From Raja brachyura (taxonomy: Eukaryota): 64,000 bases of DNA. The DNA is taken from positions 62,001 through 126,000 of the forward strand of contig OY740795.1 in the NCBI GenBank assembly GCA_963514005.1. The letters run 5' to 3'. Below the pieces are notes generated by a model that was not told the DNA's origin, did not search any database, and saw nothing but the letters and a program-made list of their open reading frames with translations. This document shows positions 1,451-51,125 of this stretch, piece by piece (position 1 is the first letter of the stretch; every line of letters starts with the position of its first letter). The position numbers and the translations under genes were made by a program.

Positions 1451-2250
1451 CTAACCTGGTTACAATTGCGGTTATCTCTAAAGGAAGGCGCAGCCTTGCG
1501 AAAGGTGTCACACTGTATTTGGTCTTAGTGCCGGTGGCGAATTTGTTTGGTCATTAACACCGCTGTGATATGAAGGCGGCTTCGGACGATTTATTTGCCA
1601 TTGTGTCTTGTCTACCACTCCATCCTGCAGTCTAGTTTTTAACCTGATGCTGGCTTTCCAAAGATACTTATGCATGGTTAACAGTTGAAATCACCTTAGA
1701 TCAGTTCATTGTCATTTGCTGCCAGAAGCTGAATAGTAGATATTGCACATAGAAGACGTCACCCATCGTTATAGGAAAAGTTTGAAAAATATTCCCTGGT
1801 ACTTTGAATACGAGCCCATGTAGCTCATTGATAACATGCCTTGGTTCTGCGGCTTGAAAGAAGCCAATGACACTCTAATTGCACGGAGAGTGGATGAATG
1901 GTCACACTGGATGTTGAACCCATGCGTTCCCTTGGTGATGCTTCTGATCCTAAACAGAACGACCTCTAGATAGAAAACTGGACAAAATCCGTTATTTTAC
2001 TCATGACGATCTCAGGAAGTTTCATCCTGCGGCGGTTGACGTTCGTTGTAAATTTTATTTTCGTGCAATTACCCACAATATTTAACCGAACGGCACCAAT
2101 GCCAACGACCCAAGGTTTATCCTCCAAATAAGCGGATGAATGCTGGAGATTCTAAGCTCCTGCTCTAACACGTGGTTCAATGTGGCGACGCAGACTAAGT
2201 TCGGAGAGCTCTAAAATCCGCTTTTAATTTAATCGGTAAATCGTTCCGAT
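1451..2250 (+). pseudogene. GPCR pseudogene (exon 2), paralogue of the GPR139/142-like gene at 12963-16659
   Basis: Colinear fragments NLVTIAVISKGRRSLAKGVTLYLV, AWLTVEITLDQFIVICCQKLNSRYCT*KT and ATQTKF match the intact paralogue (NVVTVAILSQGKCGLSSCVSRYLV, VWLTVAFTFDRFVAIADQKLKTTYCTQKS, VTQTKF). It has stops and frameshifts, and the acceptor reads ctgcaa instead of ctgcag. Confidence 0.85.
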
Positions 2251-4932: not shown

Positions 4933-5389
4933 ATGTGTTCCTCTTGTTCCTCTTGTTCCTTTCTGCTGATAATGATTGCGCTCCCTGGTGAGTCTCTGCT
5001 TGAATTGTCAACGTAAAATGAAATAGAAGTTCGCTTTGCTCATTTCACTTCATTTCCAATTCTCTGCGTTTCATTACAGGGACTGCTGGCGAAGATTCCG
5101 TGTCACAGCATCCATCTGAATTGACGGCGCAGGAAGGGCAAACAATAACGCTCAGCTGCAATTACTCCTCAACCTACACATCAGGTTTCACTCTCTTCTG
5201 GTACTTCCAACGACCGGGGGAAGCTCTTCGATATTTACTGAAAAGATTCAACAGGGACGGGCAAGATCTGTCTCCAGATTTCCCGCCCAGGTTCTCTGCT
5301 GATTTGGACCTGGATAGGAAAACCATTCCTCTGGCAATCTCCGGAGTGGTTTACTCCGACGCCGCGGTGTACCACTGTGCCCTGAGCCC
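4933..5389 (+). CDS. TCR alpha/delta V segment, apparently functional (leader 4933-4987, V exon 5080-5389)
   Basis: Leader MCSSCSSCSFLLIMIALP-g|gtgagt with a phase-1 intron to ttacag. The V exon GTAGEDSVSQ...TLSCNY...FWYFQRPG...SDAAVYHCALSP has the canonical Cys-Trp-Cys, is open, and is followed by a 23-RSS. Confidence 0.93.
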
Positions 5390-5428
5390 CACGGTGTGTA
5401 TGGTGCTTTGTTCGCCCTTACAAATACT
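5390..5428 (+). promoter_or_regulatory. 23-RSS (cacggtg-23-acaaatact)
   Basis: Heptamer 5390-5396, 23-nt spacer, nonamer 5420-5428. Confidence 0.9.
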
Positions 5429-5550
5429 AAGAACTCCGCCCCCATTTCACTGAATTGGATTGCACATCTATATTGCGATAGGATGCAACGTGAACCAAAA
5501 TCTGAGCACTATAGATCAATTGTGTACTTTTCATTTTAAATAATGTCTTC

Positions 5551-9707: not shown

Positions 9708-10279
9708 CCGCATTTGTTGCATCTCCTGACCCAATTGAGCCCCAGCTTGCTGCGGCTCCTACAGTGCCCGAATCCACTGAAAACTTGAGATGATCAATTC
9801 GACCCGCGAACGGGCGTTGCGCGCATCACACGGGCCCCGGTCAGCGTGCAGAGATCAGGGAGCCTCCTGCGGCCGAGTGTCCGCCAGAGGACCTCAGCGG
9901 TATGGCTTTTTGCCTCCGCGCTCCCCATGTGTTCAATATTATCTAGTTTTCAGTTTATTTCTTGTTCTGCAGAACGAGGTGATGGAGATTCTGTCACACA
10001 AATCCCACCAGCGAGCTTGAAGACAGAAGGGGAACAGGTCACTCTAAGCTGCACATATGATACTGCATTGAACTATTATGAATTGTACTGGTACCAGCAA
10101 AACTCGGCCAAACAGCTTCAGTTTATCCTGGCGAAATATTCAAACGGTGGTGAGGACAGCGCTGATTTCGCTAAAACGAGGTTCTCGGCGGATCTCCTGA
10201 CAGGGGCTAAAGTCACCAAGTTAACTATCTCTGGGCTGCAACTATCCGACTCCGCCGTTTAGTTCTGTGCTCCAAGTAA

Positions 10280-10318
10280 CACAGTGGCTGTGCCCAGTTC
10301 AATCGTTAAACAAAAACG
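10280..10318 (+). promoter_or_regulatory. 23-RSS (cacagtg-23-acaaaaacg)
   Basis: Near-consensus heptamer and nonamer with an exact 23-nt spacer. Confidence 0.93.
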
Positions 10319-10808
10319 TCACCATTGCGTAAAGCTCCGATTTCGAGCGACAAAGAAGGCTTGGATACAGATTGCGGTTTACCACAATCAACTGAAACTC
10401 CCTCATCATCCCCCACGCTGTCACATCGCTGCAAATTGACTTTTCTGAATGTCGTCACTGGAATCGTCGACCATGGATCTCACGTGGTTTCTGCTCACTG
10501 CTTCTCGGCGATTGCACACCGATTAATATTTCTCCTCCGCTTTATTGCGGAAAAAGGCATGGAGAATAGGGAACACGTGAACGGAGATGTCTTGTGGACG
10601 TTCTATATTACAGTCAAGTGGGTGCTGAACGTAGTGAACGTATAGAAGGCAGATACATCTCACGCGTAGTCAGTTCTATAGATGCGTCCTGATCATCGAG
10701 TTACTCCAACATTTTGTCTCTATACTTGTTATAAACCACCATCTGTAGTTCATTTTTATTACAAATTTAAATTGTTTTCTCTTTCTCTCACTCCCTCTCT
10801 CCCCGTCT

Positions 10809-12962: not shown

Positions 12963-13032
12963 ATGCACGCTCCGCCAAAAGGTCTGCTTTATACAATCTA
13001 CTATATAATCCTCGCAGCTGTCGGCGTCCCTG
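12963..13032 (+). CDS. Exon 1 of class A GPCR (GPR139/GPR142-like)
   Basis: MHAPPKGLLYTIYYIILAAVGVP-g|gtaag is the first half of TM1. The phase-1 donor joins in frame to the acceptor at 15760. A TATA-like cataaaag lies about 65 nt upstream. Confidence 0.85.
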
Positions 13033-13119
13033 GTAAGATTTACTACCAGATTCATTTGAAGCTGGAAACAGTGAATATTTACGAGGATGGTGCTAGAACA
13101 AGAGGGTCTGACGTAACGG

Positions 13120-13530
13120 GAGAGGTTAAGCAGGCTGCGACTTTATTCCTTGGAGCACAGGAGGATGATGGGTGATCTTATATAGGTGTATAAAGTCCTG
13201 AAAGGAATAGATAGGCACATAATCTCCCAGAGTAGGCGAATCATGGACCAGAGAACATATGTTTAAGGTGAAGGGGAAAATATTTAATAGGAATTTGAGG
13301 GGTAACATTGTCATGCAGCGGGTGGTGGGTGTGTGGAACAAGCTCTCAGAGGAGATAGTTGAGACTGGGACTATCCCATCGTTTATGGAGCAGTTGGACA
13401 TGTATACGAATAGGACAGATATGGAGGGACATGGACCAAACGCGGGCAGATGGGACTCGTGCAGCTGCGACATTTCTGCCGGTGTGTGCAAGTTGGGCCG
13501 AAGGTCTTGTTTCCACGCTGTATCAATCTA
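13120..13530 (+). mobile_element. Old CR1 3' fragment in the GPCR intron
   Basis: FKVKGKIFNRNLRGN...QRVVGVWNKL. Confidence 0.75.
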
Positions 13531-15087
13531 TGGTTATTATTGCCAGCATGTCGCTGTTAACGTAATAACATCGGAATTATGGTTGAAAGCCCTCTACCCC
13601 AGTTTACACTGTACTCATGCCCACACCTCAGGAACTACCGCATTGCCGCCTTCTGGATTTTCTTTGTAATATGACTGTGAGAAACGGTCATATACAATAT
13701 TTCGCATTTCTGTAGTTACCACTGCTTTATCGGTGAAACATTCCGGAACCCGCACGGGTTCACGCTGCCATCCCTAGCACGGATTAAGTCGCATTTTCTG
13801 TATTCCAGATACTGGTTTTGATTTTTTTTTGTTTCGTATTTTCCTTTGGAAACCGGCCGATAATCTTTCCGCCTTGGGTCTTTGCAGCGACCCCCTAACA
13901 ATCCATTCTGGTGTCGTTAAACACTTGGCAGTTATTTTGGGCGCACGATAGCCCCTGAAACGTGGCTTTTCCCATAACTGGAATATCGAAGCAAATTTCG
14001 ATCACTCTGCCTTGTCAACCCTTTAAAACGATCAGCAACATGTTATCCATAATTTCTCCCTGCTCAGGAGAAGCCTAAAGACAGTTCAGTGGGACACGGT
14101 TTCACTCCATCATCCTGTGCGGCACAGAACAAAGTTACTCGGAAAAACAAAGTCCTAAACCATGAACTGTCATTTCAAAGAAAGGTTAAAGGGAGGTAAA
14201 TTATTCCTTTGGCTTTGAATAATTAACATTCAGAAAGCTTTCAAAAGTTGCATAATTCAATATTATACTTGTCATTTGCAGTTTGCTAACATTAATCTTC
14301 CACACTTTCATTTGAATATTTTACACTTTTCGGATAGGAGGCTCACATTTGCATAATGCCATGCCAGCGAATTTCATCAATTATTTACCATGATTAGTTT
14401 ACGTTTATTTCTATTCCACCTCGCCTCTCTCTGCGGTCTCACTGTCTGTCTGCCCGCCTGTCTGTCTTTCTCTATGCCTCTATGTTCATATGTGTGTCTA
14501 TCTGCCTCTCTGCCTGTCTGCCAATCAAAATGCCATCTATTTTTTCTGTCTGCCTCTCTCGGTCTATCTGTCTTTGCATTTCACATGAATGAAGTATTTG
14601 ATGCATTTTAGGTTATTTGTATTTTGCTGGAATATACGGGGTTTTTTCTTGGACTCGGAATCCGGAAACAAATTTAAAAAATAAGGAGTTTTTTTTCCTT
14701 CACTCTTTCCTCAGTCTGACAAAGATGTGAAAAAGACGCAAATATAATTGGAATGTTTTCTAATTTGTATCATCGCGGTAATTTCACCCACTTCACAAAA
14801 TTACGGCAGCATGCGAACTAATTTATTAATCAGCAGTGAACTCATTAATACTCTGCCAACGATAGTGTCGTGTCAGCTAAGGAACATGACTGACATTACG
14901 CGAATAGTCCCTGAACATCCCAAATTAGGGAAGAATCCATATGGCCCCTATGAGAGAAAGTGTTGCTCCTTACCCGCTCCGAAACGCATGGGTAATGTTG
15001 AGAAATGACTGCTTCTTCAATTCTGGCAAAATCAGGGCGATCAGTTAATGCCAGTGTTACCAAGGATTTGGTACATCATTTGACAGG

Positions 15088-15390
15088 TGGCACTGCGGCG
15101 TAACGATGGAGCTACTGCCTTCCAGCGCCAGAAACCCGAGTTCGATACTGACTTGTCTGGATGGAGTTTGTACGATCTCCCCGTGATCTGTGTAGGTTTT
15201 ATCCTAGGTCTTCGGTTACCACCCATATTCCAAATAGGCACAGGTTTGTATGTTAATTGACTTGGTATACAATGTAAATTGTCCATTGTGTGTGTGGTAG
15301 ATGTGTTAATATGCGGGGATCATTGGTCGGTCCATACTCGGTGGAGTGTCGGGCCTGTTTCCGCGCTGCATCTCTAAAACCGAAATACAA
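15088..15390 (+). mobile_element. tRNA-derived SINE (V-SINE/HE1-like)
   Basis: Same head, core (ggagtttgtacg.tctccccgtga) and tail (gggcctgtttccgcgctg.atctctaaa) as the other copies. Confidence 0.75.
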
Positions 15391-15760
15391 CCAAATACAA
15401 GAGCACATTCGATAATTAATACAGCGCCAGAGACCCGGGTTCGGTTCTGACTATGGGCGTTGTCTGTACGGACTTGGTACGTTCTCCATATTTTAAGGTG
15501 GAGTAGGTACCGGTAGGCGCCGTTGAAACTCGACTATGTGGTGGATGCGGACAACAATGTTGTGATTTGATGGTATTTGTTGGAAAATTGCAGTTTGGAT
15601 TTGTGTACTATTACATAAAATATAAATAGATATTAAAAGGTCCTGGTTAAGTAAACGAAAATATGGAGCAGATTAAAAGGGTCCGAATGACCATCTCACC
15701 CCTACTACATATTTTACGGTTCTTTCTTTGAAATTGTATTCCGCATGTGTTTTCTTGCAG

Positions 15761-16659
15761 CAAATGTGGTGACGGTGGCAATCCTTTCACAGGGAAAGTG
15801 CGGTCTCTCCAGCTGTGTCAGTCGTTACCTGGTGTCCATGGCGGTGACGGATCTGCTGGTCATTATCACCGCGGTGATACTCAGCCGGATCAGCGTCACT
15901 TACGCAGCGGGCAGTTTCCTGTCCATTACCCCGGCGTGCAGCCTGAGCAGTGTCCTAATTTATGCGGCCAGGGACAGTTCAGTATGGTTGACGGTCGCTT
16001 TCACTTTCGACCGATTTGTCGCCATTGCCGACCAGAAACTTAAAACAACTTACTGCACACAGAAGTCAGCCGCCGTGGTCATTGGCCTGGTCTGTGGTCT
16101 GAGCTGTTTAAAGAACATCCCATTTTATTTTATCTACAAGCCATCCTACGTAATTAATGGCGTCCCCTGGTACTGTAACGTGAAGTCAACCTTTTACAAT
16201 TTTCCAATGTGGAAGGCCTTTGACTGGATCGATTGCATTCTCACCCCTTGGCTCCCTTTCGTCTTAATCCTGCTGCTCAACGCTCTGACAGTAAGGCACA
16301 TTCTGTTCGCCAGCAGAGCCCGCAGGAGGCTTCGGGCGGGCGGACCGGTAGACAACCGGAGCGACCCGGAAAATGAGAGCCGCAAGAAGTCGATCATCTT
16401 ACTCTTTGCCATCTCCGGCAGTTTCATCCTCCTGTGGATGACGTACGTTGCAAACTTCCTCTACGTTGAAATCACCAAAGACACCTATTCCGCTGGATTT
16501 AACTTCAGAGACCCCAAGTTTGTGTTCAGGGAAGTGGGCAACATGTTGCAGCTCCTGAGTTCCTGCTCCAACACCTGCATTTATGCCGTGACCCAGACCA
16601 AATTTAGACAACAGATTAAGAATCTGGTCAAAATTCCTCTCCGTCTGTGTTTCCAATGA
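15761..16659 (+). CDS. Exon 2 of class A GPCR (GPR139/GPR142-like orphan receptor), 322 aa spliced product
   Basis: Acceptor ttttcttgcag. Seven hydrophobic helices, MAVTD in TM2, Cys at the top of TM3 and in ECL2 (WYC), DRF, and NTCIY as the NPxxY variant. Open to TGA at 16657-16659. Confidence 0.9.
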
Positions 16660-20932: not shown

Positions 20933-21900
20933 CCGGGCTTAGTAGAAAAGCGGCAAAGCAGAAAGCAACACGGGCGGTTTGGATAGAGCAACGCCCAATC
21001 AAGTACAATGTTGAAGTCTATATTAGTAATGCTGAGGATTATAATACAATTGTTGGATAGGTAGTGAGAAAAAACATCATATTTGACAGGCAGGTCCCCT
21101 TTGGTACAAGCAGTTGGGGAATTCCCTCTGATTCTATCGGGGAACACCGCCCCTGCTCCCCGTTATCGAATAACTAACATCGTCAAGCGCCAACGCCAGA
21201 TTCATTGGGCACCTGAAACAAACCCTTCGGCCAATAATGTCTGCACCGAACATCGCTGTGCGTCCCCCCCCCCCCCCTCCCACAAATTCCTTCCATATCC
21301 ACCTGACAATAGTACTTGGCCTATCGGACCATAAATAACAGTACATTCAAGGCACCCATCATTCATTGTTTTAAGAGGTAGCCTCGCTGACTTCTTCAAA
21401 CTCTGCCCCTCTCACCTTAAGAGTATGCCCGCTCCACTTTCTAAATTCCGCCCTGGGGAAAAGGCTTCCGACTCCCTCCACTATCCATGTCTCTCATAAT
21501 CTTGTATATTTTATATAGTTATACCACGTTTGGTCCCCGTAATGAAAAAAAATGGAATCGGCTCCATCCCAATCACGGTTCTGGCTACAAATGCAGCTCA
21601 CGATGACCGTGTGGATTTCCTCCGGATGTTCTGGTTTCATCCCTCGTGCTAAAGACGCGCATATCTATAGGCAAATTAGCTGATTAGTTAATTGCACCAA
21701 GTGTGTATGTTGAATAATCTTAGGGGGTGTGGTCGATGGGAATATGGGGAAAATACAATGGGATTAACCTGGGAATTATTATAACTGGGTGGTTTATGGC
21801 CAGGTCGGGCTCGATGGGCCGACGAGCCGTATTTTCTATGACTGTGTAACTCTACGCCTTCTTTCATTGGTATTCCATGTGCTTACAAAAGAGAAACTGA

Positions 21901-21939
21901 TGTTTTTGTACGGCGTCGCCTTTGCTGTGTACGACTGTG
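21901..21939 (-). promoter_or_regulatory. 23-RSS (cacagtc-23-acaaaaaca) of the supporting V-delta
   Basis: Heptamer 21939-21933, 23-nt spacer, nonamer 21909-21901. Confidence 0.85.
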
Positions 21940-22251
21940 TGGAGCGAGGCTGGAGTGCACAGTGATATACAGCAGTGTCGCTGATTTGTGCTTTGGGGAT
22001 CACGAGCAAAACCATTTTCTCAGACAGTTCGTGCAAAGCACCAATCTGGTCCCCGGGATCCTCTTCTTCGTCTCCCGCACCTGATGTGAGTATGCTAAGC
22101 AGATACGTCTGTGCTTGCCCTGGTGAGTGTCGGTACCAGAATACATTATGGTGACATTAACCTGAATATACACACGTTAAGGTAACACGGCGTCCGGCAT
22201 CGGCGAACTACACGTGCGGGTTCTGATGTAGGCTGAATTTCCATTCCAGAT
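21940..22251 (-). pseudogene. Leaderless NAR-TCR 'supporting' TCR delta V, pseudogene
   Basis: After the ctgcag acceptor: DLEWKFSLHQNPHV*FADAGRRVTLTCVYSG*CHHNVFWYRHSPGQA...ISDTAVYHCALQPRS. It has an extra CDR1 Cys (22156-22154) and stops at 22210 and 22159. No leader is seen, and the phase matches the upstream J donor. Confidence 0.85.
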
Positions 22252-24610: not shown

Positions 24611-24918
24611 TTTTCGAGTGCAGAGTTACAACTTTTTATCGTAGACCTTCATAAATATTTGAACAATTAGTGGTCCAATTGAAACAAATAAATATGCAAT
24701 TCTTGCAAATTGCCAACCTCTAGAATGCCTCGTCATTCCGCGATATTTGCGTATTTTACAGTATCGCGATTACGTTAATTTTCGAACAGAGAAACTAAGC
24801 TTGGAAGGCAAATCTCCTGACAGCGGTTTCCATTGCGGACTTTGTCAAACTTACCAAAACTAATGGTTTCTGTGAACGTGTGATGAATTGCGAAAGGGCG
24901 ATGTTGGGGTGGACTTAC

Positions 24919-24984
24919 CAGATGTCACAGTCACCACCGTCCCGGTTCCATCCACATACTCAGATTTCTCTCCCCAGGCAGACA
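24919..24984 (-). other. NAR-TCR J segment
   Basis: SAWGEKSEYVDGTGTVVTVTS-g|gtaagt, with a NAR-like xGxGT motif instead of FGxG. It is open and preceded by a 12-RSS. Confidence 0.88.
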
Positions 24985-25012
24985 CACACTGCTTGCAATC
25001 AGCACAATATCC
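24985..25012 (-). promoter_or_regulatory. 12-RSS of J (ggatattgt-12-cagtgtg)
   Basis: Heptamer 24985-24991, 12-nt spacer, nonamer 25004-25012. Confidence 0.85.
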
Positions 25013-25324
25013 TTGCAGCTCGGCCGACAATGGTTGAACGGTGTAGACCAGGAATCCCGGTTCCAGTCTTTGGAGCAACGTCCTGTCTCGTGTCGGAAGA
25101 AGGGAAATTACATGTTTAGTTCCTGTTAAACAGCTGTTATTTGCAATCCCCTTCGATGACGAATCCCGCGCAAAGCAATCCTCCTTGGCAAACGCAACAT
25201 GTGTACTGCAACGTCCTTTCGCCTTTTAGGCAAAAAAACAATTAGAGGTATAAACGCGAGTCGTGGACCTTGGAGGTGGATTAATTTCCAAGTCAAGTCC
25301 ATTAATTTCCTGTCAAGCAGTGGG

Positions 25325-25364
25325 AGTTTTTGTGAAGGGAAAGTGGCAGATTCGCAACAGTGTG
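25325..25364 (-). promoter_or_regulatory. Two-turn RSS of the NAR-like V (cacactg-24-acaaaaact)
   Basis: Heptamer 25364-25358 and nonamer 25333-25325; the spacer counts 24 nt. Confidence 0.8.
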
Positions 25365-25894
25365 TGCTCCAGTCCCTGCACTGGGCCTTGCAGTAATAGT
25401 TGGCGCTGTCTTCAATTCTCAAAAGCAGAATGTTGAGAGTAAAAGGGTTTTCTGTCGCACTAGTGGCCGCGACAAATCGCCCACCGGGTAACACCAACTC
25501 CCAGTTTGTGTCCGATTCGGCTTTCCTGAAGACAAGCCACCGCTCCCATTTTTACCCCACGGCAGCGTCATCAGTGAAGCGACAGGTGATATTAACAGAC
25601 TGGCATTCCATCCGACTTATCGCGGGCGGCCTTTGTAACACTTGCTGACTGAACGTACCTGAAATTAAACAGAGAGACGGGTTGGTTCATTGCGTCGTCA
25701 GAGGAAGGCGTAGAGCGATGCTTAAACCCTGAAACCGCTGCTTATTGGGAAGAGTTTCGGGTGCAATGATAACAAATGTAAAGGGCGCCAGTGTGTTTTA
25801 ACTAAAACTCACCAGACCGGGAGACACACAGAGACAAAGCAAAAAGGATACCCTTCGCTCGGTTGCCCAGAACCGATTGTTGATTTTTCAACAT
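25365..25894 (-). pseudogene. IgNAR-like V of NAR-TCR (leader 25894-25813, V exon 25658-25365), in-frame stop
   Basis: Leader MLKNQQSVLGNRAKGILFALSLCVSRS-g|gtgagt. The V reads QQVLQRPPAISRMECQSVNITC...VG*K...GGRFV...EDSANYYCKAQC. The short FR2/CDR2, GGRF and YYCKA are NAR hallmarks. It has an extra FR1 Cys and a TAA at 25554-25552. Confidence 0.87.
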
Positions 25895-31641: not shown

Positions 31642-32139
31642 TGTTTCCATGCGGGTGTATACTGATTGCCATCACTGTGCGGCTCAAAGTGCAGTAATAA
31701 TCTGCAGAGTCGCTCAGCTCCAGATCTGAGATGGTCAAACTGATGAATTTACTCCCGGTTCGGAGTTCGACAGAGAAACGACTGTCAGCAAACCGCGCTT
31801 TCCATTCATCCCCATCGCTGTCTTTCCGTAAAGTGTACTCAGGCTCTGAGCCAGGTATCTGTCGATACCAGTATATCCTGTAGGCACCCGGGGTTTTGTA
31901 TGTGCATTCCAACGTCACTGCTTCTCCTTATGTCTTCACTGCTAATGGCGGCGATTGAGTGACAGAATATGTGATCTGTAAAAATAGATCCAAACGGAAA
32001 AAAAAATTATCAGACCTGCGAGATTTAAAGTCTGAGATTCATACCCTGTTTCACAAGTAAAAGAGAAAATAAATGTATGTGTGTCACTATAACTTATCGT
32101 AAATGTTCCCCGCACAATCCAGATAATGAGGAACCACAT
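31642..32139 (-). pseudogene. TCR alpha/delta V pseudogene (leader 32139-32094, V exon 31975-31680, degenerate RSS)
   Basis: Leader MWFLIIWIVRGTFTI. The V reads TLECTYK...YWYRQIPG...SDSADYYCTLSR. It has an 8-nt deletion after the acceptor relative to its duplicate and a TAA at 31930-31928. The RSS is cacagtg-22-atggaaaca. Confidence 0.9.
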
Positions 32140-35502: not shown

Positions 35503-36432
35503 ATGCGCCCATTTGCCATTTGGATTGTGTGGGGAGCATGCCTGATAGGTAAAATCGCAGCAGTTAATCCGGCTACTCACGCCGACGGAACGTCGACCAT
35601 CATTGTGAATGCGAACCGGTCTAATATTTATCTATATGTAAATGCAAAGCCGGGTGCAACTTAATGGCCATCCACATGTCATGGAGAAAATGAATTGTTA
35701 TAGGTAATGTTTGGGGTCGAGACCCTCCTTCAGGTCACCTATTCTTGTTGTCAAGAGAGGCTGGCTGACCCGCAGAGTTACTCCAGCTTTTCATGTCTAA
35801 CCGGTTGAAGTCAACATCGACAGTTCCGTCTTACCTATAAGCCGCGGCAATGTTCGGTTCACCTCGATAAGGAAGCGAACTATACGATGTATGTCTACCC
35901 CAGTGTAGACAGTGGCCTTTGTCTCTGGAACTGATTCGCTACAATAATATGTACTTTGTTCTGCATTTTCTACCTTTGCTTTATCGATCTATTGAACGTG
36001 CGTTTGATTTGATTGCATTTAAGTACATTATCAGTTGATCTGTTTAGGTAGCATGTAATACAAAGGTCTTCTGTATTTTTGGTGCACGCATAACAAACCT
36101 AAATCTAATCCTTTTTTTTCAGATCCCAATCATGGAGATACCGTCACACAATCGCTGCCGTCAGCACAGAAGGTAGAAGGAGAGTGGATGTCTTTCAGCT
36201 GCACCTATGATACCACAGCAACGAGCTACGACTTATTTTGGTACCGGCACCATCAGGACTCAAGGCCCGAGTTCATACTGAGGACATATTCAAGTGGAAG
36301 AACTGAGGAGAAAGCCGACTTTGCAGGCGATCGCTTCTTTACCCAGCTCCAGACCGATAGAAAATTATTCAGTTTAACCCTATCGGGGCTGAAGCTGAGC
36401 GACTCTGCAGTTTATTACTGCGCCTTTCGCCG
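35503..36432 (+). CDS. TCR alpha/delta V segment, apparently functional (leader 35503-35548, V exon 36123-36432)
   Basis: Leader MRPFAIWIVWGACLI-g|gtaaaa and acceptor ttttcag. The open V reads DPNHGDTVTQSLP...FSCTYD...LFWYRH...SDSAVYYCAFR. Confidence 0.93.
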
Positions 36433-36471
36433 CACAGTGATGGAACCAAATGAAACCTTCCTACAAAAACA
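36433..36471 (+). promoter_or_regulatory. 23-RSS (cacagtg-23-acaaaaaca)
   Basis: Consensus heptamer, 23-nt spacer and near-consensus nonamer. Confidence 0.95.
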
Positions 36472-37029
36472 TCAGCTTCTGCTTTGCCTGCTGCAGCTAG
36501 ATACGTCTGCACTGCGTTTGCAGGTTGTGGTTTCCCACCACCTGAGAATTCATCCCAATTCACTCAGTTTCTCTTGAGGGCGGTTTGCGGTGACATCGGC
36601 GCAACTGAAACCCACCAACTCCCTTTCTGTGCTCCGTGCTGAGGGCGGCATCTGTGTGAACAGAATCGCCATGTCTGGTGTCCGGAAAACACATGGGTTA
36701 GGTTTACATTTATAATGGTCAAAGATGCAGTTTTAAACTATGCTTCCCATGCTGGCCAGATCAGATAACGATCCATAAATACAACCCATTCAAACCGAAG
36801 TGCAATAGATAGAGCAAAGGGAAAGATACAGAGTGCAGAATAACGTTGGAATAAAGAGTGCAGATGTGCACTGGCCTGTACTGCTCATTGTGGGGTTACA
36901 TCTTGTAGTACCCTACCGCAGATAGACACAACACGCTGGAGTAACAACGGGACAAGCAACATATCCGGAGAGAAGATGGGTGACGTTTGGGTTCGAGACT
37001 GAAAGTCAGGGGAGAGTGAGACTAAATAT

Positions 37030-38993: not shown

Positions 38994-41815
38994 AGAAACA
39001 TAGAAACATAGAAAATAGGTGCAGGAGTAGGCCATTCGGCCCTTCGAGCCTGCACCGCCATTCAATGTGATCATGGTTGATCATCCAACTCAGTATCCCG
39101 TACCTGCCTTCTCTCCATGCCCCCTGATCCCTTTAGCCACAAGTGCCACATCTAACGCCCTCTTAAATATAGCCAATAAACTGGCCTCAACTACCTTCTG
39201 TGGCAGAGAATTCCAGAGACTCACCACTCTCTGTGTAAAGAATGTTTTCCTCGTTTCGGTCCTAAAGGAATTCCCCCTTATCCTTAGACTGTGACCCCTT
39301 GTTCTGGACTCCCCCAACATCGGGAACAATCTTCCAGCATCTAGCTTGTCCAACCCCTTAAGAATTTTGTAAGTTTCTATAAGATCCCCCCTCAATCTTC
39401 TAAATTCCAGCGAGTACAAGCCGAGTCTATCCAATCTTTCCTCATATGAAAGTCCTGACATCCCAGGAATCAGTCTGGTGAATCTTCTCTGTACCCCCTC
39501 TATGGCAAGGATGTCTTTCCTCAGATTTGGAGACCAAAACTGTACGCAATACTCCAGGTGTGGTCTCACCAAAACCCTGTACAACTGCAGTAGAACCTCC
39601 CTGCTCCTATACTCAAATCCCTTCGCTATGAATGCTAACATACCATTTGCTGTCTTCACTGCCTGCTGCACCTGCATGCCTACTTTCAATGACTGGTGTA
39701 CCATGACACCCAGGTCTCGTTGCATCTCCCCCTTTCCTAATCTGCCACCATTCAGATAATAGTCTACCCTCATGTTTTTGCCACCAAAGTGGATAACCTC
39801 ACATTTATCCACATTATACTGCATCTGCCATGCATCTGCCCATTCACTCAGCCTATCCAAATCACCCTGCAGTCTCCAAGCATCCTCCTCACACCTAATT
39901 ATACCCCCCAGCTTGGTATCATCTGCAAATTTGGAGATGTTGCATTGAATTCCCTCGTCCAAATCATTAATATATATTGTAAATAGCTGGGGTCCCAGCA
40001 CTGAGCCTTGCGGCACCCCACTAGTCACTGCCTGCCATTCTGAAAAGGACCCGTTTACTCCTACCCTTTGCCTCCTGTCTGCTAGCCAGTTCTCTATCTA
40101 CATCAATACTGAACCCCCAATACCGTGTGCTTTAAGTTTGTATGCTAATCTCTTATGCGGGACCTTGTCGAAAGCCTTCTGAAAGTCTAGATATAACACA
40201 TCCACTGGTTCTCCCTTATCCACTCTACTAGTTACATCCTCAAAAAATTCTATCAGATTTGTCAGACATGATTTACCTATCGTAAATCCATGCTGACTTT
40301 GTCCAATGATTTCACCACTTTCCAAATGCGCTGCTATCCCATCTTTAATAACTGACTCTAGCAGTTTCCCCACTACCGATGTTAGACTAACTGGTCTGTA
40401 ATTCCCCGCTTTCTCTCTCCCTCCTTTTTTAAAAAGTGCGGTTACATTAGCTACCCTCCAATCCTCAGGAACTACTCCAGAATCTAAGGAATTTTGAAAA
40501 ATTATCACTAATGCATCCACTATTTCTGTGGCTACCTCCTTGAGTACTCTGGGATGCAGACTATCTGGCCCTGGGGATTTATCGGCCTTCAATCCATTCA
40601 ATTTACCCAACACCACCTCCCGGCTAACCTGGATTTCACTCAGTTCCTCCATCTTATTTGACCCCCGTTCCACCGCTATTTCCGGCAGATTATTTATGTC
40701 TTCCTTAGTGAAGAGAGAACCAAAGTAGTTATTCAATTGGTCTGCCATGTCCTTGTTCCCCATGATCAATTCACCTGTTTCTGACTGCAAGGGACCAACA
40801 TTTGTTTTAACTAGTCTCTTTCTCTTCACATATCTATAAAAACTTTTGCAGTCAGTTTTTATGTTCCCTGCCAGTTTCCTTTCATAATCTATTTTCCCTT
40901 TCCTAATTAAGCCCTTTGTCCTCCTCTGCTGCATTCTGAATTTCTCCCAGTCCTCCGGTAGGCTGCTTTTTCTGGCCAATTTGTATGCCTTATCTTTTGT
41001 TTTTGTACTATCCCTGATTTCCCTTGTTATCCATGGATGCACCACCTTCCCCGATTTATTCTTTTGCCAAACTGGTATGAACAACTTTTGTACTTCATCC
41101 TTGCAGTCTTTAAATACCTTCCATTGCACATCCACTGTCAACCCTTTAAGAATCACCTGCCAGTCAATCTTGGCCAATTCACATCTCATACCTTCAAAGT
41201 TACCTTTGTTCAAGTTCAGAACCCTTGTTTCTGACTTAATTTTGTCACTCTCCATCCTAATGAAGAACTCAACCATATTATGGTCACTCTTTCCCAAGGG
41301 GCCACGCACAACAAGACTACTAACTAACCCTTCCTCATTACTCAATACCCAGTCTAGAATAGCCTGCTCTCTCGTTGGTTCCTCCACATGTTGGTTGAGA
41401 AAACTATCCCGCATACATTCCAGGAAATCCTCTTCCTCAGCACCCCTGCCAATTTGATTCACCCAATCTACATGCAGAGTGAAGTCACCCATTATAACCG
41501 TGTTACCCTTGTTGCACGCATTTCTAATTTCCTGTTTGATGCCATCCCCAACTCCAATACTACTGTTAGGTGGCCTGTACACAGCTCCCACTAGCGTTTT
41601 CTGTCCCTTAGAGTTTCGCAGCTCTACCCATATCGATTCCACATCCTCCACGCTAATGTCCTTCCTTTCTATTGCATTAATCTCCTCTCTCACCAGCAAC
41701 GCTACCCCACCTCCTTTTCCTTTTCGACTATCCCTCCTGAATATTGAATATCCCTGGATGTTCAGCTCCCAGCCTTGGTCACCCTGGAGCCATGTCTCCG
41801 TGATCCCAACTATAG
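38994..41815 (-). mobile_element. Young CR1 LINE with a near-intact 5'-truncated ORF2 (partial endonuclease + RT)
   Basis: In-frame ORFs of 533 aa and 312 aa separated by one TAG at 40100-40098. Motifs [20 protein letters not shown] and FADD, with a (tagaaaca)n tail. Confidence 0.95.
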
Positions 41816-41823
41816 CATAGTCA

Positions 41824-42225
41824 TTAAATGAAAACTAATCACATTATGATCACTAGCTCCAAGCGGTTCCTTTACCCCGAGTTCTCTTGTCATATCTGAT
41901 TCATTCGACAAAACTAAATCCAGAATTGCCTTCTCTCTGGTCGGTTCAACAAACTCTCTTTCTTGGGGTCCTGAACCAATCTGATTTTCCCAGTCTACCT
42001 GCATATTGATTTCCCCCATCACCACACTGGCATTACCTTTGTTACATGCCAGTGTTAACTCCTGCTGCAACTTACACCCTACATACGGGCTACTATTTGG
42101 GGGTCTGTAAAGAACACCAATTGGTGTCTTCTTGCCTTTGCAATTCCCCAACTCAATCCACAGTGACTCTACCTCATTTGTCCCTATGTCTTCCCTGCAA
42201 GGGACTGAATTCCATCCCTCACCAG
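41824..42225 (-). mobile_element. 5' part (endonuclease) of the older CR1 split by the 38994-41815 insertion
   Basis: ORF 41810-42151 contains GVLYRPPNS...SDHNVI. Confidence 0.8.
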
Positions 42226-42842: not shown

Positions 42843-44292
42843 TACCATATAACCATATAACCATATAACAATTACAGCACGGAAACAGGCCATCTCGGCC
42901 CTTCAAGTCCATGCCGAACAACTTTTTTCCCTTAGTCCCACCTGCCTGCACTCATACCATAACCCTCCATACCCTTCTCATCCATATGCCTATCCAATTT
43001 ATTTTTAAATGATACCAACGAACCTGCCGCCACCACTTCCACTGGAAGCTCATTCCACACCGCTACCACTCGCTGAGTAAAGAAGTTCCCCCTCATGTTA
43101 CCCCTAAACCTCTGTCCCTTAATTCTAAAGTCATGTCCTCTTGTTTGAATCTTCCCTATTCTCATAGGGAAAAGCTTGTCCACATCAACTCTCTATCTCT
43201 CATCATTTTAAAGACCTCTATCAAGTCCCCCCTTAACCTTCTGCGCTCCAGAGAATAAAGACCTAACTTATTCAACCTATCTCTGTAACTTAGCTGTTGA
43301 AACCCAGGCAACATTCTAGTAAATCTCCTCTGTACCCTCTCTATTTTGTTGACATCCTTCCTATAATTGGGCGACCAAAATTGTACACCATACTCCAGAT
43401 TTGGTCTCACCAATGCCTTGTACAATTTTAACATTACATCCCAGCTTCTATACTCAATGCTCTGATTTATAAAGGCTAGCATACCAAAAGCTTTCTTTAC
43501 CACCCTATCTATATGAGATTCCACCTTCAAGGAACTATGCACGGTTATTCCCAGATCCCTCTGTTCAACTGTATTCTTCAATTCCCTACCGTTTACCATG
43601 TACGTCCTATTTTGATTTGTCCTGCCAAGGTGTAGCACCTCACATTTATCAGCATTAAACTCCATCTGCCATCTTTCAGCCCATTTTTCCAACTGGCCTA
43701 AATCACTCTGTAGACTTTGGAGATCCTCTTCATTATCCACAACACCCCCTATCTTGGTATCATCTGCATACTTACTAATCCAATTTACCACCCTTTCATC
43801 CAGATCATTGATGTACATGACAAACAACAAAGGACCCAACACAGATCCCTGAGGCACCCCACTAGTTACCTGCCTCCAACCCGACAAACAGTCATCCACC
43901 ATTACCCTCTGGCTTCTCCCATTCAGCCACTGTTGAATCCATCTTGCTATTCCTGCATTTATACCCAACAGTTGAACCTTTTTAACTAACCTTCCATGAA
44001 GAACCTTGTCAAAGGCCTTACTGAAGTCCATATAGACAACATCCACTGCTTTACCCTCGTCAATTTCCCAAGTAACCTCTTCAAAAAATTCAAGAAGATT
44101 AGTCAAACATGACCTTCCAGGCATAAATCCATGTTGATTGTTCCTAATTAGACCCTCTTTATCCAGATACTTATATATATGATCTCTAAGTATCTTTTCC
44201 ATTAATTTGCCCACCACTGAAGTCAAAATAACCGGTCTATAATTGCTAGGTTTACTTTTAGAACCCTTTTTAAACAATGGAACAACATGCGC
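42843..44292 (-). mobile_element. CR1 LINE, 5'-truncated, (ttatatgg)n-tailed subfamily
   Basis: ORF 43162-44394 has NYRPV, QHGF, DFSKAFD and YADD. It is absent at the paralogous site near 58278. Confidence 0.93.
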
Positions 44293-45513
44293 AACTGGGC
44301 CCAACAGAGTTCCAGTGGACGCAGCTCCAGCAAATGGTTTTATTTTTTTGCTGCAGATTACATCACCCCTTATCTGCTGAGTCGGTGTAACCACCGGGTT
44401 ACAGAGCCAAGACGATTAGGAAAAAGGAGGCGCAACGTGGTTCCAGTCAATTTGAAGCCGGGGCAGACATTAGTGGCGAAGTTAACAATATTAGTCCGTA
44501 CTGCCTGGTCCCAAGAGGCAGTCCACAAAACGGAGTCCGCGCAGCGGTAGTGCGAATGGGGACATTTGCGAGAATGTGTTTTGAACAAAGGATGTTACAT
44601 GTGGCCAACGAAGAAACAGGCAACGTACCAATCTCTGCTGTTATCTCCACCAATCTCTCCCTCAGCATTCCATCCACTAATTCTTTAATCCTCACATGGG
44701 GATTCACCGTTCGTGTACACCTCGTCTCACGCATTCCATTTACTTATACAATGTCTGGCAGACGGCGCTCAGATCCTGCAACACATAATGTTATTTTTGC
44801 TGCACATTCCAGCATCTCTAGTCATTTGTGACTTGCCTCTAATGCAATAAAATGTTTTCATTTGCAAATATAATATCTGCTGCATCATAAGGAAACTAGA
44901 AAATGAATAAGGCATTGCGAAATTGTCAACCGTGTTCTCTTCCGTGGCATCAATAAGGTTTGGCCTGATTTACATGGAATTAGACTAATTTCCGATTGCT
45001 TTCAAGAATGGACTGGAAGGCTGTTCTGGTAGAAAGGGAAAAATATACGGAATAAACACTTGGCCCAATCCTAATTCCTACATAAGGAAGCGAAACTAGC
45101 AAGATGCAAATTATCTTTATTTCAAATAAAGACACGTTGCTACATAAAATGTTCTTCGCTACATTGGATAGCTTTCTGGAAAATTACGGCGTATCTTCAA
45201 ATGATCGAATATTATTCATCTGCGAAAATAAGTGATCGGCAGAATAACCTGGTATTTTATTGTTATAGTGTGAATGGATCGTCAATCACAGCGTACACAG
45301 GCGTGTCCCGGTTAGTTAGTCAATCGGGTAACTACACGGCAATCTTATTTGCTAAATACTCCGACTAATCACAGATCTACAGAGTGGAACTTGGGGGATC
45401 TGCTACTGTTGGACGTACGATATATTTTATCTGAATACAGTAATCAGTGAGGCAGAGCTTGGGGTGAACCACGTCAGGTTGAATAACGGTAACAATAATG
45501 TTCTAAGAGAATG

Positions 45514-50617: not shown

Positions 50618-51125
50618 TCTTTCTGTATGGGTGTATACTCATTCCCATCAGTGTGCGGCTCAAAGCGCAGTAATAAACTGCAAAGTCGCTCAGCTCCAGA
50701 TCTGAGATGGTCAAACTGATAAATTTAGTTTATATTTAGTGCGGATTTCGACAGAGAAACGACTTTTAGCAAACTCCGCTTTCCATTCATCGCCATTGCT
50801 GTCTTTCCGTAAAGTGTACTCGGGCTCTGAGCCGGGCATCTGTCGATACCAAAATATACTGTTGGCACCCGGGGATTTGTATGTGCATTCCAACGTCACT
50901 GATTCTCCTTCTGACTTCACTGCTATCGGCGGCGACTGAGTACAGAATCTGCACGGCCGTGATCTGTAGAAATAGATCCAAACGGAAAAAAACGATCAGA
51001 CCTGCGAGATTTGAAGTCTGAAATTCATACCCTGTTTCACAAGTAAAAGAGAAAATAAATGCATGCGTGTCACTATTACTTATCAAAAATGTTCCCCGCG
51101 CCATCCAGATAATGAGGAACCACAT
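50618..51125 (-). pseudogene. TCR alpha/delta V pseudogene (leader 51125-51080, V exon 50963-50656), duplicate of 31642-32139
   Basis: Leader MWFLIIWMARGTFLI. There is a 1-nt deletion in FR1 and a frameshifting insertion in FR3 (ORFs 50711-50920 and 50520-50714). The RSS is cacactg-22-acagaaaga. Confidence 0.9.

Follow-up and report, generated by a model that had tools for sequence, protein, structure and literature searches.

Olfactory receptor (OR) genes are linked to the MHC of mammals. They are also interspersed with the TRAV1 genes of the TCR alpha/delta locus, as trypsinogen genes are with TRBV genes (PMC2275272); the association of mammalian TCR alpha/delta with OR genes, brought up in a sequence-only reading that preceded this study, is on record in that source. 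In both mammalian loci an unrelated multigene family lies among V genes and is lost if an upstream V joins (PMC2275272). The locus of Raja brachyura that we describe here shares this arrangement, but its receptors belong to another family than the mammalian ORs and, with at least 21 copies, extend over the entire V region instead of sitting at its 5' end.

GPR139 and GPR142, orphan receptors that sense aromatic amino acids, resemble the family reported here in their class A fold, a phase-1 intron before the TM1 Asn, the missing proline of the NPxxY motif, and similar TM3 and TM7 signatures. The family differs from them in sequence (22% identity), in forming its own clade, in lacking the TM6 proline, in a pocket that is replaced or variable, and in its hundreds of copies as against one. 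A common origin of GPR139/142 and peptide receptors of protostomes has been reported (PMC8514136). Rinne et al. gave the name GPR210 to orphans of coelacanth, gar and fishes that they placed next to GPR139/142; the available part of their survey includes no shark and reports no expansion (PMC6504862).

With the OR, TAAR, V1R and V2R families, the new family has in common a compact coding region, clustering, birth and death of copies, and a variable pocket, but it is not homologous to them at the family level. Reports credit cartilaginous fishes with large olfactory organs but only about 20-62 OR genes, and a mean of 43.8 OR, TAAR, V1R and V2R genes taken together (PMC10869828), to be set beside at least 334 motif matches of the receptor family in the present genome. 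Shark chemoreceptor surveys, as far as their accessible parts go, deal with known families (PMC10116579, PMC10869828).

We analysed a window of 64,000 nucleotides, which corresponds to positions 62001-126000 of contig C15 (C15:62001-126000) and lies close to the start of this 59.8-Mb contig. Its features are as follows.

1453..2208, plus strand: decayed paralogue of the receptor family with stops and frameshifts, missed by the earlier reading
5100..5430, plus strand: open TCR V exon with a 23-RSS at 5390; the receptor lies in the DNA that would be lost on its joining to the J region downstream
9993..10320, plus strand: TCR V pseudogene with an in-frame stop before the last Cys and a 23-RSS at 10280
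12963..13032, plus strand: receptor exon 1 (70 nt), comprising the ATG, a short N-terminus and most of TM1, with a GT phase-1 donor; a similar exon 1 lies upstream of neighbouring paralogues
13033..15760, plus strand: phase-1 intron in TM1 (GT..AG), with repeat fragments
15761..16659, plus strand: receptor exon 2 (899 nt), from the end of TM1 to the stop, with an AG acceptor, backed by Pfam and the predicted fold
21900..22231, minus strand: supporting V of a NAR-TCR-type cassette, with two stops
24915..25015, minus strand: NAR-TCR-type J segment with a 12-RSS
25325..25664, minus strand: VNAR-like V with an RSS and VNAR matches, its frame broken by one stop
31679..31963, minus strand: TCR V pseudogene
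36143..36472, plus strand: open TCR V exon with a 23-RSS at 36433
50655..50941, minus strand: TCR V pseudogene with a frameshift

The minus-strand V-J-V cassette we take to be of the NAR-TCR type from its VNAR matches and from the known cassette layout. Fragments that are presumably LINEs of the CR1/L2 type fill much of the window, some with long endonuclease and reverse-transcriptase frames (39093-41834, 43165-44415 on the minus strand, and others).

The single receptor gene is ordinary; the family to which it belongs is the finding. We consider it somewhat probable that the members of this family act as sensors for diverse ligands and that its arrays are duplicated together with neighbouring sequence, the window copy being a passenger of the TCR locus and its loss on rearrangement a by-product.

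Exons 1 and 2 form one frame of 322 amino acids whose sole stop is terminal. Exon 2 matches the Pfam profile 7tm_1 (E 3e-20, 73.1 bits against a cut-off of 30.5), and this is the receptor's only Pfam match at E<=0.001; the olfactory receptor profile 7tm_4 is absent at that threshold. The predicted fold of exon 2 is a class A bundle (pLDDT 86), and the gene shows the class A features of a seven-helix fold, D2.50, a DRY-like motif, the TM3-ECL2 cysteines and Y7.53. Frame, splice sites, profile and fold all agree with the intact two-exon receptor of the rhodopsin class that the sequence-only reading had called. Its finer description proved accurate as well: the extracellular N-terminus is nearly absent, with the first hydrophobic stretch beginning at residue 9-15, a GT..AG intron of phase 1 interrupts TM1, and DRF, the segment FILLWMT without a TM6 proline, and NTxxY (here NTCIY) are all present. 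So are the flanking V pseudogene and, on the minus strand, the VNAR-like V, J and supporting V between which it had placed the gene. Two contig runs from related organisms, of unrecorded kind and resolving neither splicing nor a bridge from V gene to receptor, cover both exons. The gene is real, encodes a class A GPCR, and is under purifying selection (dN/dS 0.14-0.21 against 6 paralogues).

The V genes span about 9 kb to 1.03 Mb of C15, in a TCR alpha/delta locus of 1.2 Mb. At least 21 motif matches of the receptor family lie inside this locus, interleaved with V genes, as the earlier reading had proposed. Runs of N flank the receptor on both sides, and a misjoin at these gaps had been named as one way in which the proposal could fail. 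That the juxtaposition of V genes and receptors is such an assembly error is extremely improbable: the N runs are possibly masks and not gaps, and the same alternation is found again in stretches devoid of N (C15:1-60 kb and 340-450 kb) as well as in an inverted duplicate, in which C15:1-100 kb is repeated at 302-392 kb with its main blocks 88-98% identical.

The geometry of the locus also permits the somatic deletion of the receptor that had been envisaged for T cells rearranging an upstream V. Of 56 J-like segments in the 200 kb examined between 1.00 and 1.23 Mb, to the right of the receptor, 55 are on the plus strand, so that joining of plus-strand V genes would delete the intervening DNA; the joining direction is that indicated by the J segments, TCR constant exons not having been located. 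Open plus-strand V exons with a 23-RSS, judged without their leaders, number four on the 5' side of the receptor (at 9.6, 20.0, 50.5 and 67.1 kb of C15), among about 74 V pieces in the 444 kb examined of the first 450 kb. Deletion is therefore possible yet would affect few alleles, and the loss of the receptor on V(D)J rearrangement would likely be incidental.

An exact TM3 motif gave 334 matches in the genome and 0 for its reversed control, a lower bound because several matches of the protein search lack the motif. In that search, which scored 132 of 2661 candidates, the paralogues were all 56-67% identical. Among 61 copies sampled genome-wide, exon 2 is open in 51 and broken or partial in 10. 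Databases hold 2498 proteins of the family; among the best 120, all named ones come from sharks and rays, and the family is also present in chimaera. The window protein itself is 94% identical to a protein of Amblyraja and 79% to one of Mobula. These counts bear out the earlier suspicion of a lineage-expanded family. By comparison, 99 OR candidates yielded one match at E<=1e-20, on an unplaced contig, and 52 class C receptor candidates yielded 34 matches.

Since database entries call these proteins 'probable GPR139', the gene might be GPR139 or GPR142 itself. The top PDB match of a full-length Mobula relative is GPR139, and the intron agrees with that of GPR139 in position and phase: the acceptor position, of a phase-1 intron before N1.50, is common to all 50 alignable paralogues and to the GPR139 gene on C21. 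The latter, however, is the only gene in the genome with the motif taken from the human GPR139 chain, and is the true, single-copy GPR139; the window receptor is 22% identical to it. In a 19-row tree, midpoint-rooted and without a GPR142 row, the cartilaginous family has support of 88/93; a salamander gene joins next (100/98), followed by a coelacanth, a teleost and one unnamed UniRef protein (99/98), the coelacanth protein being 33% identical. A quick tree of 41 rows agrees in shape, and a single clade of GPR139 and the family is rejected (p-AU 1.4e-5, on trees without GPR142). We thus regard identity with GPR139 or GPR142 as very unlikely. The resemblance first noted holds as relatedness; the phylogeny places the family outside the GPR139 clade, where it appears as a related yet separate lineage. 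GPR210A/B are likewise orphans filed beside GPR139/142 (PMC6504862), and from the taxa and the placement, not from sequence, we infer that the coelacanth, teleost and UniRef proteins forming the sister group are GPR210. Against our preferred reading, galanin receptors equal or outrank GPR139 in both fold and sequence searches; with the exon 2 model they score best (TM-score 0.73-0.76, against 0.71 for GPR139).

One line of evidence for a sensor repertoire is the contrast between the two faces of the receptor. All 51 paralogues keep DRF, both disulfide cysteines, N7.49 and Y7.53, and variation among them is highest in ECL2 and ECL3. The pocket through which GPR139 recognizes the amino acids Trp and Phe includes E3.32, F3.33, H5.43, W6.48, R6.51 and N7.39 (PMC7318219). 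At these positions the window gene has I, Y, W, W, Y and N, and does not reproduce that pocket. Entropy at 3.32, 3.33, 6.51 and 7.39 reaches 2.6-2.9 bits, where the helices average 1.26, while 5.43 and 6.48 are mostly Trp across paralogues (W6.48 in 41 of 51). Invariant signalling motifs with a hypervariable pocket are a pattern of multi-ligand sensor families, and the many intact, clustered copies with a diversified pocket are what a chemoreceptor repertoire would present. The invariant G-protein side may accordingly be one signalling interface serving many ligand specificities. An excess of amino-acid change was not seen in any region (highest dN/dS 0.36), which counts against this reading.

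The copies might instead be mostly functionless hitchhikers, multiplied by the duplication-prone regions in which they lie. The 10 broken or partial copies of the 61 sampled, the decayed copy within the window, and the higher dN/dS of the six youngest pairs (0.28-0.46) point in this direction, as does the duplicate at C15:302-392 kb, which carries V genes and receptors together but has lost the segment holding the window gene. Older pairs, however, have a dN/dS of 0.14-0.22, the signalling motifs are invariant, orthologue-like proteins exist in skate and devil ray, and the family reaches chimaera. Because of this purifying selection, the idea is already largely refuted, and we consider it improbable.

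We mapped all 269 motif matches on contigs C1 to C50, leaving aside the 65 on C51 and later contigs. Of the 269, 66 are found no more than 250 kb from an Ig or TCR locus, in less than 1% of the genome, and about 60% are at neither Ig/TCR loci nor the MHC. In addition to the 21 matches inside the TCR locus, 34 occur next to IgH clusters within 6.4 Mb. Contigs C42 to C50 carry 100 of the mapped matches, with Ig exons seen there on C47 only. In a test that preserves distance to the contig end and includes the 34 of 39 clusters for which lengths were known, 6 of the 34 come within that 250-kb distance of Ig/TCR loci, the expectation being 1.55 (p 0.004), on an incomplete Ig list for which 150 of 362 C1-exon candidates and 150 of 199 and 150 of 281 V candidates were scored. 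After blocks that look co-duplicated were dropped (C3, C22 and the second block on C15), 3 of 31 remain against 1.13 expected (p 0.09). The enrichment near Ig/TCR loci is thus significant in the full set and not in the reduced one, and most paralogues are not near V genes. The C3 and C22 arrays adjoin an IgM-like exon and TCR-V-like pseudogenes, and the C3 copy groups with one TCR-locus subfamily; both arrays are likely transposed pieces of the C15 locus. At C22:44.4-45.0 Mb receptors alternate with the TCR-V-like pseudogenes, and the array at C3:128.5-128.9 Mb includes the IgM-like exon. None of the 31 placed class C receptor matches comes closer than 1 Mb to an immune locus on the list, a weak control, this family not being duplication-prone here.

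On C25, 43 motif matches fall in the interval from an MHC class II alpha exon (12.57 Mb) to beta-2-microglobulin (24.16 Mb); some have class I alpha-3 exons at a distance of about 57 kb. These exons are near-identical and are found at 18.15-22.90 Mb. C1 exons on contigs C25, C12 and C18 are not counted as Ig, C25 being the MHC. In their table of the sawfish MHC chromosome, Verissimo et al. list 13 genes named 'probable GPR139': two adjoin C4, and ten follow one another among the class Ib genes close to B2M. We equate these with the receptor family by name only, and the available main text does not mention them (PMC10751288).

Such linkage raises the possibility, which we hold to be doubtful, of an immune-cell sensor repertoire for microbial peptides or metabolites, comparable to formyl-peptide and Mas-related receptors. 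Its location at TCR and MHC loci would be kept for co-regulation, and V(D)J deletion would alter the receptors that a T cell retains. The 21 matches in the TCR locus, the 34 near IgH clusters, the 43 in the MHC, the like-named sawfish genes beside C4 and class Ib genes (PMC10751288), the cluster enrichment in the full set and the deletional geometry of the V genes are all in its favour. It is weakened by the loss of significance without the co-duplicated blocks, by TCR-linked and MHC-linked copies belonging to different subfamilies, and by the majority of mapped copies lying elsewhere; moreover, J-proximal copies would vanish from most rearranged alleles. We lean towards external or gut chemical sensing over a role in T cells. 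For a catshark library from brain and olfactory epithelium, the accessible part of a study names no GPCR among the 50 most abundant and specific genes (PMC11979771), which argues mildly against a dominant nasal role.

In the ligand-diverse repertoire that we prefer, each copy would bind a different amino-acid-like or peptide ligand in its transmembrane pocket. Gq/11 signalling is reported for GPR139, and the family would signal via a G protein, perhaps the same. Its arrays may be long-standing residents of the TCR locus and the MHC that expanded and contracted by segmental duplication along with their neighbours. As a side effect, V(D)J joining would delete the gene in a minority of the alleles that have rearranged. 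The arrays at TCR alpha/delta and the MHC are two of the largest, and the MHC linkage appears in sawfish too; this exceeds what pure passengers would predict.

TCR loci with embedded non-V genes are nothing new, and database annotation already shows the family under the name 'probable GPR139'. Our literature search found no published description of it, a result to which subscription papers and supplements could hold an exception; it goes unmentioned in the available parts of PMC10620051, PMC11886862, PMC10116579, the main text of PMC10751288 and the supplements of PMC13188829. The lone embedded gene and its somatic deletion are of little importance by themselves. Several hundred receptors with diversified pockets are a candidate for the missing sensory repertoire of cartilaginous fishes, or for an immune sensor repertoire. 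The arrays at TCR alpha/delta and the MHC bear on the repeated settling of unrelated receptor families at both loci, and are relevant to reconstructing the ancestral immune complex. More boldly, and only tentatively, the family could be an unrecognised major vertebrate chemoreceptor family: it would be the main repertoire of sharks, rays and chimaeras, several times the size of OR, TAAR, V1R and V2R combined, and would occupy the positions at TCR alpha/delta and the MHC that ORs hold in mammals.

Several other arrangements of V, J and constant exons were encountered. NAR-TCR-type V and J are also present in the C15 inverted duplication, where intact and broken states differ between both copies. 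An IgH V-D-J already joined in one frame lies within the TCR alpha/delta V region at C15:546 kb, near IgM-like constant exons at C15:554-559 kb. On the minus strand at C15:1,010,594 and 1,012,979, a lone J with a 12-RSS is found 2.4 kb downstream of a minus-strand V, the two forming a small inverted V-J unit just ahead of the main J region. Two open TCR-V-like exons with a 23-RSS sit in a large receptor array at C15:4.447-4.451 Mb, 3.2 Mb past the J region. The unplaced contigs C668, C1160 and C1094 carry dense TCR V arrays and may be unplaced parts of the locus or alternative haplotypes. Finally, at C8:88.2-89.2 Mb there is an array of V-set exons that share about 26-35% identity with IgH V; one of these exons lies in an open frame of 1904 codons.
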